From Dictyostelium discoideum (lineage: Eukaryota), in contig CM000151.3 of assembly GCA_000004695.1 (NCBI GenBank), positions 3,744,001 through 3,808,000 on the forward strand: DNA of 64,000 bases. Direction: 5' to 3'. The notes under the pieces are model-generated. The model was not told where the DNA came from. It ran no database searches and saw nothing but the letters and a program-made list of their open reading frames with translations. The translations under genes and the position numbers were made by a program. Position 1 is the stretch's first letter. Each line of letters starts with the position of its first letter. This document shows, in pieces, positions 37,238 through 45,212 of the stretch.

Positions 37238-38033
37238 TTAAACGTGTAAGTGCAAATGTTCAAAATCATTGTAAGTGTCAGTTTCTTTATTATCATCTAT
37301 ACTTTCATTGATATCAATGTGTCTTGAGGAAGAGTCATTTGATGAAGGTGCTTGATCAATAGCATTTGAATCGTCTTTGATACAGATTACATTACACTTT
37401 GCATGTTCAAGGATGTAACGAGAAGTTGAGCCAATGAATATCCTTTTGATTGGTCCAATTCCTCTTCTTCCAACTACTAGATAGTGAATATCTTTTTCAA
37501 CTGCTGCTTTAATTACAGCTTCTCCAACATGATTTCCATGGCCTAACAATGCTTTAACATTTTGAACACCTAAATTTTTACATAAATTAGCTCTGTTTAT
37601 TAAAATTGATTTGTGTTTTCTCTCAATTGCTTTCAATGTTTCTTTAAAATATATATTAATGTAAATATTAATATTTAATTTTTTTTTTTTGTTTTTTTTT
37701 TTTTTTTTTTTATTTTATTTTATTTTATTTTATTTTATTTTATTTTATTTTATTTTATTTTATTTTATTTTATTTTATTTTATTTTATTTTATATATATT
37801 AATTAATTTATTAATTTATTTTATTTTATTTATTTATTTATTTATTTTTTAAAAAAAGACATACCTGAAACAACAACCGCAGAAATTGCGGACGATGGGA
37901 ATGTAATTGGATCCTCTGCTACAGAAATTAGGTATAACAAATCCTTATCTTTTTGAAATACATGATTAATAATTTCTTTGATTGAATGTTCAGTATTACT
38001 TCCTTCATCCACTGCTATCATATAATTTACCAT
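37238..38033 (-). CDS. universal stress protein (UspA-family) domain protein, 2 exons
   Basis: Exon 1 37865..38033 (MVNYMIAVDEGSNTEHSIKEIINHVF...AVVVS; donor GTATGT, phase 1) and exon 2 37238..37640. Contains the USP ATP-binding signature VVGRRGIGPIKRIFIGSTSRYILEHAKCNVICIKD. The intron carries an (ATTTT)n tract at 37700..37795. Confidence 0.8.
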
Positions 38034-38355
38034 TTTTTTTTTTTTTAATTAATTTTTGGATAAAAAAAAAAATTTTATTGGTATTATTTTTTTTTTTTTT
38101 TTTTTTAATTGAAATTACAACAAAAAATAATAAAATTAAATTTTTTTAATTATTTTTTTTTATTATTTTTTTTATTTTTTTTATTTTTTTTTTTTATTAT
38201 TGATTTTGTATGAAAAAATAAAATGGTAAATTATATTATTTTAATTTTTAGAAGATGAAATACAAAATTTTATTATTTTTTTAATACAATTTTGTATTTC
38301 ATCTTCTAAATATTAAAATAATACAATAAAAAAATTTATATAAATATAACCAATC

Positions 38356-38394
<39 letters not shown>

Positions 38395-38579
38395 CCAACG
38401 AACGTTCGTTTTTGTTTTTTTTTTTTATTATTTTTTTTTAATATTTTTTTATTTTTTTTTTTATTTTTTTTTTTTTAAATTGGTTCAATTAAAAAGTTTG
38501 CTAGTCAAACGATTTAGGCAAATAGTGTAATATTACGAAAATAAAACAAATAAATAACAAATATTTAAATAAAAAAATC

Positions 38580-38702
38580 ATGATTTCAAAGATTTTTTCA
38601 AAACAATCAATATTTGCAATATTTGTTATATGTTTGTTTATATTCATTTTAAATAATAATATTATTGACACAAAACTAAAAGAAAAACATATTAAAGAAC
38701 AA

Positions 38703-38791
<89 letters not shown>

Positions 38792-41402
38792 TAATAATAA
38801 AAAATCAAACGTAAAGAAAAATTCATATAATAGTTTTAGAAATATTAATTTTTTAAATGAAGAATTTCCTCAGCTCTACACATATAATCCTGAAGAGCAG
38901 AATATAGAAACATACCACTACTACGAGGAAGAGGAAGAAGAAGAAGTAGAAGTAGAAGTAGAAGAGGGAGAAGAAGAAGAAGATAATTATCAAGATAAAA
39001 ATAAATTAAAGATATTTAACAATGAGATTAAAGAGGAATGGTCAAAATTACCAAGTGATATAATGGATAAAAAGAGGATTTGTATAGTTACAACTGAAAT
39101 AGAGGGACCAGTTTTGGGAGGTGGTATTGGAACGGCATATACAGCATTATCACAAAAATTGAATGAGGATGGACATCAAATTACAATTGTTTTAGTGAAT
39201 AAAGTGAAGAGATTAACAATGGAGCATTGGATAGAACTTTACGGACGACAAGGTATAGAGTTGGTGATTTTAGATTTCTTTCTATTGGATCCTCTATCGG
39301 TTGGATCAAAGGTTGCAATGGAAAATCAGAATAAATTGAACCCAAATGAAACTGATAATCTCATTGGAATGATAGGTTGTACTGGACCATGCATTAGATC
39401 CTATCGTACTTATCTTTGGTTATCAAGACACGAGAATCAATTTGATTTCATACATTTTCATGACAATGGTGGTATGGCCTATTTCTCAACTCTATCACAA
39501 CGTCAAGGTTTACACTTTCAAGAGGTAAACATTGTCATTGGTGGTCATGGTCCACATCTTTGGGAAAGAATCGCAAATTCTGCCAATCTAGATGATGGTA
39601 AACATTTCGAAGTAGATTATTTAGAAAGAAAATCGGTTCAATTCTCAAATTATCTTATATCACCAAGTAATTATATGTTAAATTGGATGACTTATAATCG
39701 TTGGGAAATTCCAAAGAATTCTTTTGTTCATCAAAATTTATTACCTGGTAAAAATCAACAATCCTTATCACCAATGTTATTAAATGATTTTTTATTTAAA
39801 CAACAACAACAACAACAACAAGATATTAATGCTGATCAGCAAGATGATGACAATGATAATGGTTTAGAATTACATGATTTTAATGAAATATTATTTTTTG
39901 GTAGATTAGAGTCAAGAAAAGGTTTAGATATATTTTTAAAAGCTTTAGAATCATTATCACAACAAATAAAGAGTTATTCAATGAAAATTACATTCCTTGG
40001 ATCAAATACGAAATTAATGGAATTCAATGTAATGGCTGATTTATATATTGATTCAGTTTGTAGACGATTGGATATTTATTGTCAAATTTTAGTTGGAAAA
40101 TCTCATACTGAAGCAATTCAATATTTAACTACCAATAAACATGATAAATTGGTTGTGGTCGCTTCACCCATTGATAATTCTCCAAATACCGTATTGGAAT
40201 GTTTAACTCATCGTTTATCTTTAATTGCAACCAATGTTGGTGGTATACCTGAACTCATTCATCCAAATGATAGAAAGAGGGTTTTATTCGATCCAAAACC
40301 AAAATCATTGATCAAATTAATTAAAACTTTAAAAGAAACTGGTATCTCTGCTGCTAGATTTTCAACTGATGAATGGACTCGTCAAATGATTTGGAGTAAT
40401 TGGCATTCTATTGCACAATTGGATTCTTCAATAACAAATAGAAATAGAAAATTAAATAGTGTTAGATTAGATAATATCAAAAAGAAATTATTAACTATAG
40501 TTTTAATATATGATAGAAGTAATTTAGAAACTTTATTAAAAAATATAAACTCTATTTCATCTCAACCATCACCATACTTTAATTATAATATTTTAATAGC
40601 AAAATCTTCAAAGATTCCTGGTGGTTCAACTGATAAAATCTCTCCAAAACTTTCAAAACTTTTAAAATCTTTAAATATTTTTTATCTTGTAACTGAAATT
40701 AATGATAGTTTATTACAACCATTTCAACCATGGAACTCAAAAGAAATATTAGAACATTCAACAGGTGATAATATCCTCTTTTTAGATCCTTTAGATTATC
40801 TCTCTTCAAATGCTTTATATCTATTAGGAAGAGTTGATCAATTTACAAATGCTCAAATTATCACTGGTTCAGTTTTATTCAGTGGAAATAATTCAATTAT
40901 AATTGATAAAGTTTTTGATCAAATTAATAAAAATATTGGAACTACTACTACCACTACTACCACCACCACCACCACTACAACCACCACTACAACTTCTTCA
41001 ACTACATCTTCTTCTTTAGATCATTCACCAGATACAAGTATAACTTCAATTTATATGGGATGTACTGGTATGCCTGGTATAATGTATAATTGTTATGGTA
41101 GTAGTAATTTATTAATAAGTAGAGTAGCTTTACAAGAATTAAGTAATCAATATCCTGTACTCAAGAAAAACAATAGCGCTGATAATGATCATTTTGATCA
41201 TTTAGATTTCAATAGCGATATTGAAAATAGTGGTACTTGGGACTTTTATGCTCATGCAACAAGTAATGGTTATTCTTTACAAACTATACCAAAGGTTTTA
41301 TTTATCTCTGATAGATTAGAATATGAACCTCAAATTACCTATAGTCAAGAAACTAGAGTTTTAAAAAATTTTGATAGTAAATATTATAATATTTTTATTT
41401 AA
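38580..41402 (+). CDS. large membrane-anchored glycosyltransferase (GT4-like domain); may continue into the downstream sulfotransferase exon (see 41502..42646)
   Basis: 940-aa ORF with an N-terminal hydrophobic anchor (IFAIFVICLFIFIL) and an acidic low-complexity tract. GT4-type core: ICIVTTEIEGPVLGGGIGTAYTALSQKL..ITIVLVN ... ILFFGRLESRKGLDIFLKALESL ... NSPNTVLECLTHRLSLIATNVGGIPELI. The C-terminal half has a poly-T linker and a further domain. A GTAAAT donor sits 25 nt before the stop codon. Confidence 0.8.
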
Positions 41403-41409
41403 TTTTATT

Positions 41410-41457
<48 letters not shown>

Positions 41458-41501
41458 AATTAATTTTTAATTTTTTTTTTTTTTTATTATCCAAAAAATA
41501 G

Positions 41502-42646
41502 ATATTCTACCACCAACATTTGAATTATCATCATTAGCGACAAGACATTTTTTAACAACAAAGAAGTTATATTTAAATGAGATTATTAATGTAAATACAA
41601 AATCAAAAGAATGCGAAAGATTATTAAATAGTGGTAACATCAATAATATTAATAGTAATAATAATAATAATAATAATAACCAAGAGTTAATTAAAATATC
41701 AAATGATAATTTTAATGAAAATGGTGAAGAGAATCATATGGAAAGTAGAAATCATATTAAAATGTTATTTGTTAGAGGTCATGAAAAGAGTGGAACAAGT
41801 TGGTTAAAAAAAGTTATTGATTTACATCCAAGAATTTTCATGGCAAAACAAGAGTTTCATTTCTCTATTATGGAGGAAGGTTTAGATAAATTTACATCGA
41901 AACCATGGGCAGCTGCACAAGAACCATATAAATCTTATAGTAGAAAATGGTATAGATCATTTGTTAGAAATATTTTATTATCAGGTGTATCACCATCATT
42001 GGCTCCATTAATTAATTGGATCGGTGAGAAAACTCCATCACCATTGGCACCAATTATCTCTGGTTCAAGATATATTCTAATCATTAGAGATGGTCGTGAT
42101 GTGGTTATAAGTTTATTTTGGCATTATGTAAGATTAGGTGGTTTTGAAAATTGGTGTGGTCCAAATCAACATCATTTAGTCAATCCAGATTATGTCAAAG
42201 AGTATCGTGCTGATAATGGTACAAAAGATTACTTCTCAATTTATCCAGAAAGATTATTGGAAAAAGAAATTTGCTTTAGAAAAATCGCTTCTGGTTGGGC
42301 AAAACGTGTTAGAGAGGATCAATCTGTCATTGATGCATTACAATCGAATCCAGTTGCTTCGGTTTTCTCTTTACGTTATGAAGAATTACATAGAAATCCT
42401 GAAGAAAATAGAAAAGCTCTTTACCAATTTTTAGATTTAGATTATAATGAAGCTGAACCATTATCTGTTGAAGATAAAACTATACCCGGTGGTTTCGATG
42501 AAAAATCTGATAAAAATAAATTCTTTAGAAAAGGTGAAATTGGTGATTGGAAAAATTATTTCACTGATAATAATAAACGTTGGTTTAAAGAAGAAACTGG
42601 TAGTTTATTAGTTGATTTAGGTTATGAATTAAATAATGATTGGTAA
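41502..42646 (+). CDS. sulfotransferase-domain protein segment; no ATG of its own for about 80 codons, likely 3' exon of the glycosyltransferase gene
   Basis: The frame is open from 41471. The first ATG is at 41738, but upstream in-frame sequence is clearly coding (ILPPTFELSSLATRHFLTTKKLYLNEII...). It carries the PAPS-binding motifs: 5'-PSB HEKSGTSWL and 3'-PB YILIIRDGRDVVISLFWH. A TAG acceptor lies at 41499..41501. Dictyostelium Kil1 is a comparable Golgi sulfotransferase, but identity is not claimed. Confidence 0.7.
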
Positions 42647-42696
42647 TAAATAAAATAATAAACTATATTTAATAATATTTATTTATTTGTTTTTTT

Positions 42697-42727
<31 letters not shown>

Positions 42728-42785
42728 CATAATATTTAATAATAATTTATTTTATTTTATTTATTTTTTTTGATTTAAAATTGAT

Positions 42786-44150
42786 TTATCTTAATTTAAC
42801 AGATAAATGATTTTCTAATTTTTCACGTAAATTAAATTGAAGAATATCAATCTCTTCATTTGTTAAATTTCTATCCATTGAACGATAATAAATTCTATAG
42901 CAATGAGAAGTTTTATTTAATTTTTTATTTGTAAAATTATCAACTAAATCAACTCTTTCAACTAAATCACCACATGATTCACGAACAAATTCATAGAATT
43001 TATTTTCATGAAAGTTTTCTTCATCTTCTAACCAAAAACTAACATCTTTAAAGCATGATGGATATTTACTAAATTGTTGAAATTGAACACCTTTAATATC
43101 TATATCAGATAATGTTGAGGAGGAGGAGGAGGAGGAGGAGGAGGAAGAGGAAGATGAAGTACTGATAGACTTATCAACTCCTTTAAATTGATTATGAAAT
43201 CTATTATCTTCAGTCCAAAATAAACGAATATCAGGAATATTGAATAGGATCATTGCTAATCTTTCTAAACCAATACCAAAGGCCCATGCTCTATCATTCG
43301 ATAAACCACAATTATTCATGATTGAAGGATGAACAACACCACAACCTAAAACTTCTAACCATTGACCTTGGAAATAAATTTCCATTTCAAATGAAGGAGA
43401 AGTGAATGGGAAATAAGCATCAATCCAACGAACTTGTAAATCTTGACCAATGACACTACGTATCATTGATTCTAATGATTGTTTAAGATCTTTTTCAACA
43501 TCTTTTACTGATTGCAATTGTTTATAGTTATTATCTTCATAGTAATCTATGGTTTCATCGAATGGTTTACCATCTATAGCTAAATTTACTTTATCTTTGA
43601 ATACTTTTACACCTTCCATTTGATGAAAAACTGGATAGTGTACAGCATCGATAGTATCTCTACGATAGACATCACCTGTTACCAAGAATGCTTTTTCTTG
43701 CTCACGTAAAAGTTGAGATTGATGTGCACTTGTATGAGTTCTTAACAATTGATCCTTACTGAAATAGTAGGTATCATTTGGACTTCTTCCAACATGATCC
43801 ACTGGAAATAATAATTCATCAAAGTTCTCTTTAACACTTACTTTTGGTTCAAATGAATCAAAGAATTGGAATTTATGTTCTTCATCTGATAATTTATTTT
43901 GAAAATGATATTGAATCTTTTTCTTTATAATATTCAATGGATGATCTCTTTTACAATGTAAATTCTTACCAATCTTTTCTGTAATTGATTTTGAAATATT
44001 TCCATTCTCTGGTATTAACTTTGTATAGTCAATTTTACCACTACTATTGTTAGTTGTAGAACAATAAAAATTTATATTTAAATAACTTTTATTTAATCCA
44101 TCATATCTATTAACTATATTATTATTAATATTTCTTAAAATTTTGATCAT
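42786..44150 (-). CDS. phenylalanine--tRNA ligase, mitochondrial (monomeric FARS2-type)
   Basis: Single 454-aa ORF with class II aaRS motifs: FPVDHVGRSPNDTYYF, LRTHTSAHQSQLL, FLVTGDVYRRDTIDAVHYPVFHQMEGV and GQWLEVLGCGVVHPSIMNNCGLSNDRAWAFGIGLERLAMILFNIPDIRLFW. N-terminus looks like a presequence and a C-terminal anticodon-binding domain is present. Confidence 0.85.
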   Translation of the reverse strand: MIKILRNINNNIVNRYDGLNKSYLNINFYCSTTNNSSGKIDYTKLIPENGNISKSITEKIGKNLHCKRDHPLNIIKKKIQYHFQNKLSDEEHKFQFFDSFEPKVSVKENFDELLFPVDHVGRSPNDTYYFSKDQLLRTHTSAHQSQLLREQEKAFLVTGDVYRRDTIDAVHYPVFHQMEGVKVFKDKVNLAIDGKPFDETIDYYEDNNYKQLQSVKDVEKDLKQSLESMIRSVIGQDLQVRWIDAYFPFTSPSFEMEIYFQGQWLEVLGCGVVHPSIMNNCGLSNDRAWAFGIGLERLAMILFNIPDIRLFWTEDNRFHNQFKGVDKSISTSSSSSSSSSSSSSSTLSDIDIKGVQFQQFSKYPSCFKDVSFWLEDEENFHENKFYEFVRESCGDLVERVDLVDNFTNKKLNKTSHCYRIYYRSMDRNLTNEEIDILQFNLREKLENHLSVKLR

Positions 44151-44354
44151 TTTTTTTTTTTATTTGGATATTAAAAAAAATAAAAAAAAATTAAAAAAAA
44201 ATTAAAAAACAATTTAACCACAATTCGTTCGATTTTTTTTTTTTTTTTTTTTTTAATTTTGTTTTTATTTTTTGGTTTTTTTTTTCTTTCTCGCATTAAT
44301 AAAAAATATATTAATATATAAAAAAAATAATAAATTAAAAAAAAATATAAATAA

Positions 44355-45149
44355 ATGAAGAATATAGATTTAGATGAAATTGATAGATTAATAGAAGGAA
44401 GAGTTACAAATATAAATTCAGCATATAAATCTGAAGAGTTTAAAAAGTCAGTAGAGTCATGGAAAGAACAAAGAAACTCTCTAAGAGAATCTCTTTTAGA
44501 ATTTTGGCAAGATAATGAAGAAAAAATAAAATTTACAAATTGGTGGAAATCTTTATCAAGACAATATAAACAAGGTATGTTTTTAGAATATTCAATTTTT
44601 AAAAAAATAAAAATAAAAAAAAAAGAAATTCTTACTTTTAATTTCTCTCAAATTCTAATATTTTTTATTTTTATTTTTATTTTTATTTTTATTTTTATTT
44701 TTATTTTTATTTTTATTTTTATTTTTTTTTTCATTATTGTAGCAATGATATTAACATCAATTGACGATTTAAAACAATCATTAGATTTATATGATAACTA
44801 TGCACCAATTGCTAGTCCAGAATTATCAGAAGAAGAATTAGATTTTTTATTATTAAATGATATCCCAAAGGATAATAATGACCCAATCGAGGAGGATAGC
44901 TTTTTTAAACCACCACCAACACCAACTCTCATTAAACTTATAAATAGTTTGGTAGATTCAAAAGAAAATGACCCAAAAATATTCATTGGTCTTGATAGAA
45001 TGAAATTGTTTTTTAGTGATTTGGATGACCCTTCCAATGTAGTTCAATCAATGTTGGTCGTTAGATCTTGGATAATAATGGGTTTTATTGTAAAAATCCT
45101 CGGTTTATTTAATTCAGAGTTGGATCAACCAGAAGAAGAATTTAATTAA
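44355..45149 (+). CDS. hypothetical acidic protein, 2 exons
   Basis: Exon 1 44355..44574 (donor GTATGT, phase 1) and exon 2 44743..45149. The intron contains an (ATTTTT)n repeat that the unspliced ORF reads as FIFIFIF. No family recognised. Confidence 0.55.
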   Translation: MKNIDLDEIDRLIEGRVTNINSAYKSEEFKKSVESWKEQRNSLRESLLEFWQDNEEKIKFTNWWKSLSRQYKQGMFLEYSIFKKIKIKKKEILTFNFSQILIFFIFIFIFIFIFIFIFIFIFIFFFIIVAMILTSIDDLKQSLDLYDNYAPIASPELSEEELDFLLLNDIPKDNNDPIEEDSFFKPPPTPTLIKLINSLVDSKENDPKIFIGLDRMKLFFSDLDDPSNVVQSMLVVRSWIIMGFIVKILGLFNSELDQPEEEFN

Positions 45150-45212
45150 TTTACTATATGGAAATATATTTTAATTATAATTTTTTAAAAGGTAATTGAA
45201 ATTTTTTTTTTT

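Follow-up and report, generated by a model that had tools for sequence, protein, structure and literature searches.

The stretch of Dictyostelium discoideum DNA analysed here (the window; 64,000 nucleotides of contig CM000151.3, positions 3,744,001 to 3,808,000) carries on its forward strand two open reading frames (ORFs) in close succession, an upstream one at 38580-41402 with glycosyltransferase motifs and a downstream one at 41738-42646 with sulfotransferase motifs. The initial annotation had proposed that an intron at 41377-41501 fuses them into one bifunctional Golgi type II protein of about 1300 residues. Our analysis leads to the same gene structure, with a domain more in the protein, and the features of the gene can be given as follows; A1 is an alignment of homologous proteins and L001 the corresponding locus in a second D. 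discoideum assembly, both described below.

38580..41376, forward strand: exon 1, which begins with the Met start and encodes residues 1-932 and the first base of codon 933, comprising a predicted membrane anchor, an Asn/Glu-rich stem, a GT4 glycosyltransferase domain and a GT2-like domain (from the ORF, its translation, A1 and L001).
41377..41501, forward strand: phase-1 spliceosomal intron with a GTAAAT donor, an (AAT)n microsatellite, a T15 tract and a AAAAAATAG acceptor (from the sequence and the orthologous loci).
41502..41737, forward strand: start of exon 2, a conserved connector (residues 933-1011, ILPPTFELSSLATRHFLTTKKLYLNEII.. followed by a variable Asn-rich part) that has no in-frame ATG.
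41738..42646, forward strand: remainder of exon 2, a sulfotransferase domain of the type that uses 3'-phosphoadenosine 5'-phosphosulfate (PAPS), residues 1012-1313, with the stop at 42644-42646 (from Pfam and alignments).

The upstream ORF, as read from the sequence, encodes 940 amino acids that end in ..RVLKNFDSKYYNIFI*, with the TAA stop at 41400-41402. A GTAAGT-like donor, GTAAAT at 41377-41382, follows the first base (A, 41376) of an AGT serine codon, and the acceptor (..AAAAAATAG / ..CCAAAAAATAG; TAG at 41499-41501), which ends at 41501, is preceded by the T15 tract at 41471-41485. The enclosed 125 bp consist to 96% of A and T, with the (AAT)n run at about 41411-41455, compared with 73% and 80% in the flanks (72.6% in exon 1 and 79.7% in 41502-41737; the remaining sulfotransferase ORF has 69.3%). 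The downstream frame opens at 41471, after a TAA at 41468-41470, and ends with the stop at 42644-42646. Six ATGs occur between 41403 and 41737, none of them in this frame, and the earliest in-frame ATG is that at 41738. Joining 41376 to 41502 generates the codon AAT (A + AT) and a stop-free product of 1313 residues with the junction ..RVLKNFD N ILPPTFELSS... If the intron is retained, the in-frame stop at 41400-41402 is met about 24 nucleotides, or eight codons, past the donor. The donor, the acceptor, the AT-rich (AAT)n interval, the frame that is open from 41471 and lacks an ATG before 41738, and the in-phase junction KNFD-N-ILPPTFELSS were all as the initial annotation had described them.

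By itself, this sequence pattern is only suggestive of an intron, because in-frame joins come cheaply and long open runs occur locally: 40 in-frame, stop-free GT..AG joins are mechanically possible between the end of the upstream ORF and the beginning of the downstream one, and the low-complexity non-coding DNA of the window contains open runs of up to 66 codons. The 78-codon open extension of the downstream frame was stop-free in 27 of 200,000 shuffles, and in view of the 66-codon runs in local non-coding DNA we rejected this statistic as decisive evidence. It is the comparative evidence that lifts the case beyond chance.

A homologue search with the masked fused protein as the query resulted in the alignment A1 of ten sequences. 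All nine recovered dictyostelid homologues have GT4 and sulfotransferase Pfam domains in one chain, as the initial annotation would predict for orthologues, and separate genes for the two domains were not seen among them. The set includes KAM9954340.1 from the second D. discoideum assembly (P0001, ACTFIW_003881; 1303 residues, 97% identical), the D. purpureum protein XP_003293999.1 (F1A2V5, DICPUDRAFT_42846; 1201 residues), sequences from Polysphondylium violaceum, Tieghemostelium lacteum, Heterostelium album, Cavenderia fasciculata and Synstelium polycarpum, one EukProt species, and the environmental protein P0003. The annotated dictyostelid orthologues are 51-97% identical to the window protein over the full length, have the same order of three domains and the same connector, and are distinguished from it only by low-complexity insertions, i.e. 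runs of Asn, Glu and Thr, and by the length of the intron, whose site and phase they share except in T. lacteum. The fusion is thus already known, as databases contain a model of it for one D. discoideum assembly and for six or more further species, and since these fused models are public we do not present it as a discovery; the entries from H. album, T. lacteum, C. fasciculata and P. violaceum are annotated as 'putative glycosyltransferase', and library searches returned no experimental characterisation of the dictyostelid orthologues. For the annotation of the window, it means that the ORFs 38580-41402 and 41738-42646 should be merged into a single gene with one intron, as in the public models of the relatives that we examined.

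The conservation in A1 is continuous through the junction, which in KAM9954340.1 (..RVLKNFDNILPPTFELSSLATRHFL..) is identical to that of the window protein. None of the ten sequences deviates at ATRHFL, K953, Y956, E959 or I960, and each of these residues is encoded within the stretch that lacks an ATG. We retrieved the orthologous genomic loci and mapped each protein onto its own DNA. Five other loci have a phase-1 intron in the homologous codon, with lengths of 82 nucleotides in the second D. discoideum assembly (L001; GTAAAT..ATAG), 63 in D. purpureum (L002), 78 in P. violaceum (L007), 68 in H. album (L009) and 89 in C. fasciculata (L010). The donors of these orthologous introns are GTAAGT, GTAAAT or GTAAAA and the acceptors TAG or CAG, and apart from this their sequences are unrelated. 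In T. lacteum, the intron has been lost, and a single continuous ORF of 1151 codons (L008, 2001-5456) extends from GT4 to the sulfotransferase; its translation equals the deposited protein exactly, and therefore a gene-prediction artefact cannot explain the fusion in this species. The coding sequence of P0003 is uninterrupted on gene-length contigs from four samples (three JGI samples and one SRA run) that look like transcripts. Furthermore, a complete Trinity ORF from Ceratiomyxa fruticulosa (P0010) has its parts in the same order as the dictyostelid protein, and of the 380 residues of the exon-2 query, residues 2-379 are matched by its C-terminal region, which makes the three-part layout older than the Dictyostelia.

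Bacterial proteins lead across the junction as well. Intron-less GT4-GT2 proteins that are annotated as 'O-antigen biosynthesis protein' or 'glycosyltransferase involved in cell wall biosynthesis' (P0011 and P0020) align continuously with residues 166-939 at 27-28% identity. Their ..RSIRPYLN AVPPSL.. is aligned with ..RVLKNFD N ILPPTF.., and as the homologues continue through ..NAVPPSL.., exon 1 and the first codons of exon 2 go back to one ancestral polypeptide. The comparison with the second D. discoideum assembly (GCA_054859355.1, locus L001, compared over window positions 38000-45200) adds the pattern of insertions and deletions. Between 41502 and 41737 they are 3 and 3 nucleotides long, and in the rest of exon 2 there is one of 3 nucleotides, whereas those within the intron (1, 40 and 4 nucleotides) do not preserve the frame, and 1, 1, 1, 2, 4, 1, 3, 15 and 1 nucleotides are found in the 3' intergenic DNA. 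The pattern follows the proposed boundaries, which indicates that the frame constraint starts at the proposed acceptor.

In conclusion, the shared intron of five other loci, the fused orthologues, the continuous T. lacteum ORF, the bacterial alignment and the indels bear out the proposal of a fused gene: comparative sequence evidence shows one gene whose mRNA joins 41376 to 41502 and encodes a three-domain protein. As a whole, i.e. with the phase-1 intron, the single gene, the 1313-residue product and the secretory mechanism that we outline below, this is very probably the best explanation of the locus.

The obvious alternative is a pair of tandem genes, a 940-residue glycosyltransferase that ends at 41400-41402 and a soluble 302-residue sulfotransferase that starts at the ATG 41738, with the open frame upstream of 41738 being accidental or a 5' untranslated region. 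Both stand-alone ORFs do exist, the open runs of local non-coding DNA make an accidental extension conceivable, and many of the homologous sulfotransferases stand alone, with about 290-350 residues and a match that begins at about position 86 of the exon-2 query, a few residues past Met 41738. However, two genes would have to be reconciled with nine fused dictyostelid homologues out of nine, including one from a continuous ORF, with bacterial homologues that align across the junction, and with a supposedly untranslated stretch, 41502-41737, that holds ATRHFL and the other invariant residues and has tolerated only frame-preserving indels. Moreover, just 101 nucleotides of 96% AT DNA (41403-41501) would have to accommodate a terminator and a promoter before the conserved coding sequence begins. 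We therefore consider two genes very improbable. Even less weight can be given to the possibility that the two ORFs are joined by a GT..AG pair other than 41377/41501. There are 39 further in-frame, stop-free combinations between 41200 and 41745, but each of them removes, on one or both sides, residues that are kept in all orthologues, and the remaining donors (GTGGTA, GTACTT, GTAATG, GTTATT, GTTTTA and GTCAAG) do not resemble GTAAGT. Only 41377/41501 agrees with the position and phase of the intron in the five other loci and gives an alignment without gaps, and we rejected the 39 pairs on the grounds of consensus and conservation; that one of them is used has a negligible probability.

A milder variant accepts the fused mRNA as the main product and adds functional minor products that arise by intron retention or from an internal start, namely a glycosyltransferase-only protein that ends in ..KNFDSKYYNIFI and/or a free sulfotransferase from Met 41738. 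Intron retention is a common form of alternative splicing in genomes with short introns, the in-frame stop lies only about 24 nucleotides into the intron, and the Met at 41738 is placed at the natural N-terminus of the sulfotransferase fold. On the other hand, this position is not conserved as Met, as the A1 orthologues have E, V, Q or T there, and T. lacteum has no intron that could be retained. We regard such minor products as rather unlikely, albeit clearly less so than two genes. Some points weigh against the single fused product and are best seen together. An exact look-up in the protein collection returned neither the 1313-residue nor the 940-residue nor the 302-residue protein, and the spliced-junction 26-mer had no match in JGI metagenome and metatranscriptome contigs. 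In addition, the stand-alone sulfotransferase homologues begin almost exactly at Met 41738, so that a separate 302-residue product is not structurally absurd, and the stop that is met upon intron retention makes a glycosyltransferase-only isoform possible. Lastly, in the AlphaFold2 model of an orthologue the sulfotransferase part is of moderate to poor quality, with a predicted local distance difference test (pLDDT) score of about 50-68, and thus too uncertain for structural claims.

The one-gene reading, which we follow from here on, leads to a protein with more parts than expected. The initial annotation had assumed two domains, and while both the GT4 and the sulfotransferase domain are indeed present, the count has to be corrected by a third, GT2-like domain between them. 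The parts encoded by exon 1 are as follows.

38607..38654, forward strand: hydrophobic segment at about residues 10-25, SIFAIFVICLFIFIL, after Lys4 and Lys8 (Kyte-Doolittle hydropathy).
39075..40439, forward strand: GT4 glycosyltransferase domain (GT-B fold, retaining type), residues about 166-620 (Pfam, motifs and AlphaFold2 model of an orthologue).
40479..41369, forward strand: GT2-like domain (GT-A fold), residues about 634-930, with an insertion of 18 Thr (alignment to bacterial PF00535).

Within the 1313 residues, 19-residue Kyte-Doolittle windows exceed 1.6 solely in the hydrophobic segment. This segment follows a basic tail and is itself followed by Asn- and Glu-rich runs, an arrangement of a single N-terminal anchor and a low-complexity stem that, as judged by the hydropathy window only, suggests a signal anchor of a type II protein of the secretory pathway. 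Most full-length orthologues of A1 have an equivalent segment, as does, judged by eye, the Ceratiomyxa protein; the gene models P0005 and P0007 and the truncated P0009 lack the anchor region. The bacterial homologues have no such anchor, and their GT4 domain is located near the N-terminus or after another soluble domain. The deposited model of C. fasciculata (L010, upstream of 4001) comprises 871 residues without the anchor and without the N-terminal half of GT4 that the other orthologues have, and this gene model is probably truncated. As to the low-complexity regions, a run of 28 Asn in the stem (38703-38786) and the run of 18 Thr in the GT2-like domain (about 40956-41009) are absent or much shorter outside D. 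discoideum, and both are slightly different in the second D. discoideum assembly; the two runs have the appearance of lineage-specific expansions that are tolerated in loops.

The GT4 domain was recognized by the Pfam families PF00534 Glycos_transf_1 (45.4 bits, cutoff 26.4) and PF13692 Glyco_trans_1_4 (39.7 bits, cutoff 27). Its motifs GGGIGTAY, FFGRLESRKGLD (FFGRLExRKGLD) and PIDNSPNTVLE..GGIPEL are invariant or nearly so in the dictyostelid and bacterial homologues, and they provide the features expected for nucleotide-sugar binding, i.e. the Gly-rich loop, the Arg and Lys of GRLxxxKG and the acidic D/E-x7-E region. The AlphaFold2 model of the T. lacteum orthologue, which stands in for the window protein here, has mostly pLDDT values of 80-94 in the GT4 part and displays the two Rossmann folds of a GT-B enzyme. 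A Foldseek search of the PDB with the whole T. lacteum model returned only GT4 matches, the structures being GlgM, BshA and MshA (E 1e-12 to 1e-11).

The GT2-like domain is recognizable by its bacterial relatives. The window protein has no match to PF00535 at E<0.01, and none is precomputed for any dictyostelid orthologue; the bacterial GT4-GT2 homologues score more than 105 bits for this family, and the BLASTP alignments are continuous through the GT2 domain of P0011 and P0020. The bacterial proteins have the same GT4 motifs as the window protein and no C-terminal sulfotransferase, and their GT2 domain retains VDDGS and DDD. In the dictyostelids, in contrast, VDDGS is replaced by IAKSS, ATT.. 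or AVST, so that the nucleotide-sugar motif is lost in all of them, and the metal-binding DDDN (DXD) is replaced by DPLD, DFYD, DYQN and similar sequences. Since the homology to bacterial GT2 domains is kept and the acidic motifs are lost, the middle domain is probably a GT2 descendant that has become a non-catalytic pseudo-glycosyltransferase. In the T. lacteum model, the intron site falls into a short loop after the last helix of this domain, and for the connector at the start of exon 2 a long helix is predicted with moderate confidence. Residues 1-290 of one of the bacterial proteins, P0020 from Acidobacteria bacterium Mor1, contain the motifs HRSGTSLL, FGFKDPR and LRHPAAVVRSL. This N-terminus has a sub-threshold match to Pfam Sulfotransfer_3 (E 0.003, 18 bits) and was not detected by our hidden Markov model of the sulfotransferase family; P0020 may be a fusion of sulfotransferase, GT4 and GT2 in another domain order.

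Pfam identifies the C-terminal domain as a sulfotransferase (PF00685 Sulfotransfer_1, 53.5 bits, cutoff 22; PF13469 Sulfotransfer_3, 40.9 bits, cutoff 27). An exhaustive HMMER search placed it in a large family whose members are mostly stand-alone proteins with about 300 residues, and the 78 residues that precede it were matched only by dictyostelid and Ceratiomyxa proteins. For this family we used the alignment A2 of the window sequence and 19 stand-alone homologues, the 21 invariant residues of which are present in the window protein by construction. The 5'-phosphosulfate-binding (5'-PSB) motif GHEKSGTSW with K1028 and the 3'-phosphate-binding (3'-PB) motif RDGRDVVIS with R1128 and S1136 are invariant in A1 and A2, as expected for PAPS binding. 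Both can be aligned with TPST1 and with the cytosolic SULT 5x2b, to which RKGEIGDWKNYF aligns in addition. Over its N-terminal half, the domain is similar to TPST1 (E 2e-9), and the alignment takes in the 5'-PSB loop, the Glu position of HP..(6)..E, a K/R-x-P motif and RDGR..S, whereas the C-terminal half aligns with SULT 5x2b, including RKGxxGDWKNYFT. The family-invariant E1050 is aligned with the second Glu of HPDIRCGEE in TPST1, which we take to be the catalytic base of TPST. The domain nevertheless belongs to a family that is distinct from TPST and SULT, with proteins of about 300 residues from genomes and metagenomes as the closest relatives (30-42% identity), and its fusion to glycosyltransferase domains makes a carbohydrate a more likely acceptor than tyrosine or a small phenol. 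In the Ceratiomyxa protein, the 5'-PSB loop (KSGTSW) of the C-terminal region (residues about 700-1059) appears degenerate by eye, and in this lineage the sulfotransferase part may lack activity.

Fusions of glycosyltransferases with members of the same sulfotransferase family also occur elsewhere in genomes and metagenomes (E 1e-24 to 1e-40), with GT4 and one sulfotransferase domain in P0157, P0175 and P0179, GT4 and two sulfotransferase domains in P0245, and GT2 and one in P0250 and P0254. They differ in the order or number of domains, and none has the dictyostelid connector. These proteins look independent of the dictyostelid one, and such a fusion appears, from the domain arrangements, to have arisen repeatedly. 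Heparan sulfate N-deacetylase/N-sulfotransferase (NDST) offers a functional parallel, as it is a type II protein of the Golgi in which a C-terminal PAPS-dependent sulfotransferase is tethered to another glycan-modifying domain, thereby coupling consecutive steps. The partner domain of NDST is a deacetylase, as opposed to a glycosyltransferase here, and we found no specific sequence relationship, as heparan sulfate sulfotransferases were only marginal matches in the PDB search (E 0.002-0.04).

The catalytic motifs of the GT4 and sulfotransferase domains are intact, and from these and the N-terminal anchor we infer a Golgi location. With this anchor, the catalytic domains would face the lumen of the secretory pathway, where GT4 could transfer a sugar from a nucleotide sugar onto a glycan acceptor, and the tethered sulfotransferase could then sulfate the same or a neighbouring glycan, using E1050 as a TPST-like catalytic Glu, K1028 as the Lys of the 5'-PSB site, and R1128 and S1136 as the Arg and Ser of the 3'-PB site. 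The GT2-like domain, having lost the ligands of the sugar nucleotide and the metal, might now serve as a scaffold or as an acceptor-binding module. Together with GT4, it probably descends from bacterial two-domain enzymes of the O-antigen type. With such an arrangement, it is plausible that a single protein generates a sulfated glycan in one pass, as the initial annotation had envisaged. To our knowledge, physically coupled glycosyltransferase-sulfotransferase enzymes have not been the subject of any experimental study, and our library searches found none.

It may be asked what such an enzyme would modify. Kil1, which is linked to glycoprotein sulfation, is the only characterised sulfotransferase in Dictyostelium, and glycoproteins with the mannose-6-sulfate epitope are not detected in kil1 knockout cells (PMC3534706). 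Kil1 is encoded by a different gene, and the enzyme of the window probably sulfates something other than the Kil1 substrate or acts at another stage. The same study names 'gtr1' as another putative sulfotransferase of the D. discoideum genome (Le Coadic et al., 2013; PMC3534706). The glycosyltransferase-type name would fit, and gtr1 may be the gene described here; our literature searches returned no paper on the gene beyond this remark, with nothing relevant in PMC11468063 and PMC8724618. A more far-reaching scenario, which we put forward tentatively and consider rather doubtful in its entirety, would be a self-contained sugar-then-sulfate enzyme whose GT4-GT2 part derives from a bacterial two-domain enzyme of the O-antigen type, was relocated to the secretory pathway and, prior to the split of Dictyostelia and Ceratiomyxa, acquired a TPST/SULT-like sulfotransferase by fusion. 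The dead GT2 domain would then bind the acceptor, and the product would be a sulfated glycan or matrix polysaccharide of social amoebae that is distinct from the Kil1-dependent mannose-6-sulfate epitope. As Dictyostelium is a tractable model, knocking out the gene could bring a second class of sulfated glycans to light.

Some further observations concern the surroundings of the gene and the two D. discoideum sequences. Only 139 nucleotides with 96% AT (42647-42785) separate the stop of the gene from the stop of a convergent gene on the reverse strand (42786-44150), and the 3' ends of the two genes must be tightly packed or overlapping. The syntenic counterpart of the convergent gene in L001 has tRNA-synt_2d and FDX-ACB domains, which are typical of the mitochondrial type of phenylalanyl-tRNA synthetase. 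On the other side, a gene with a universal stress protein domain seems to be split by a short intron into exons at the reverse-strand ORFs 37842-38033 and 37238-37636; for the syntenic gene, the annotation of L001 lists Usp and FNIP domains. The length difference between the intron of the window (125 nucleotides) and that of L001 (82 nucleotides) is explained, as regards its 40-nucleotide part, by the (AAT)n microsatellite, and the splice signals are identical. Over the compared region, the two D. discoideum sequences are about 95.5% identical when gaps are counted and about 97.5% when indels are ignored, with 97% identity of the proteins; this divergence seems high for one species, and one of the two sequences may therefore stem from a divergent isolate or a cryptic sibling species.

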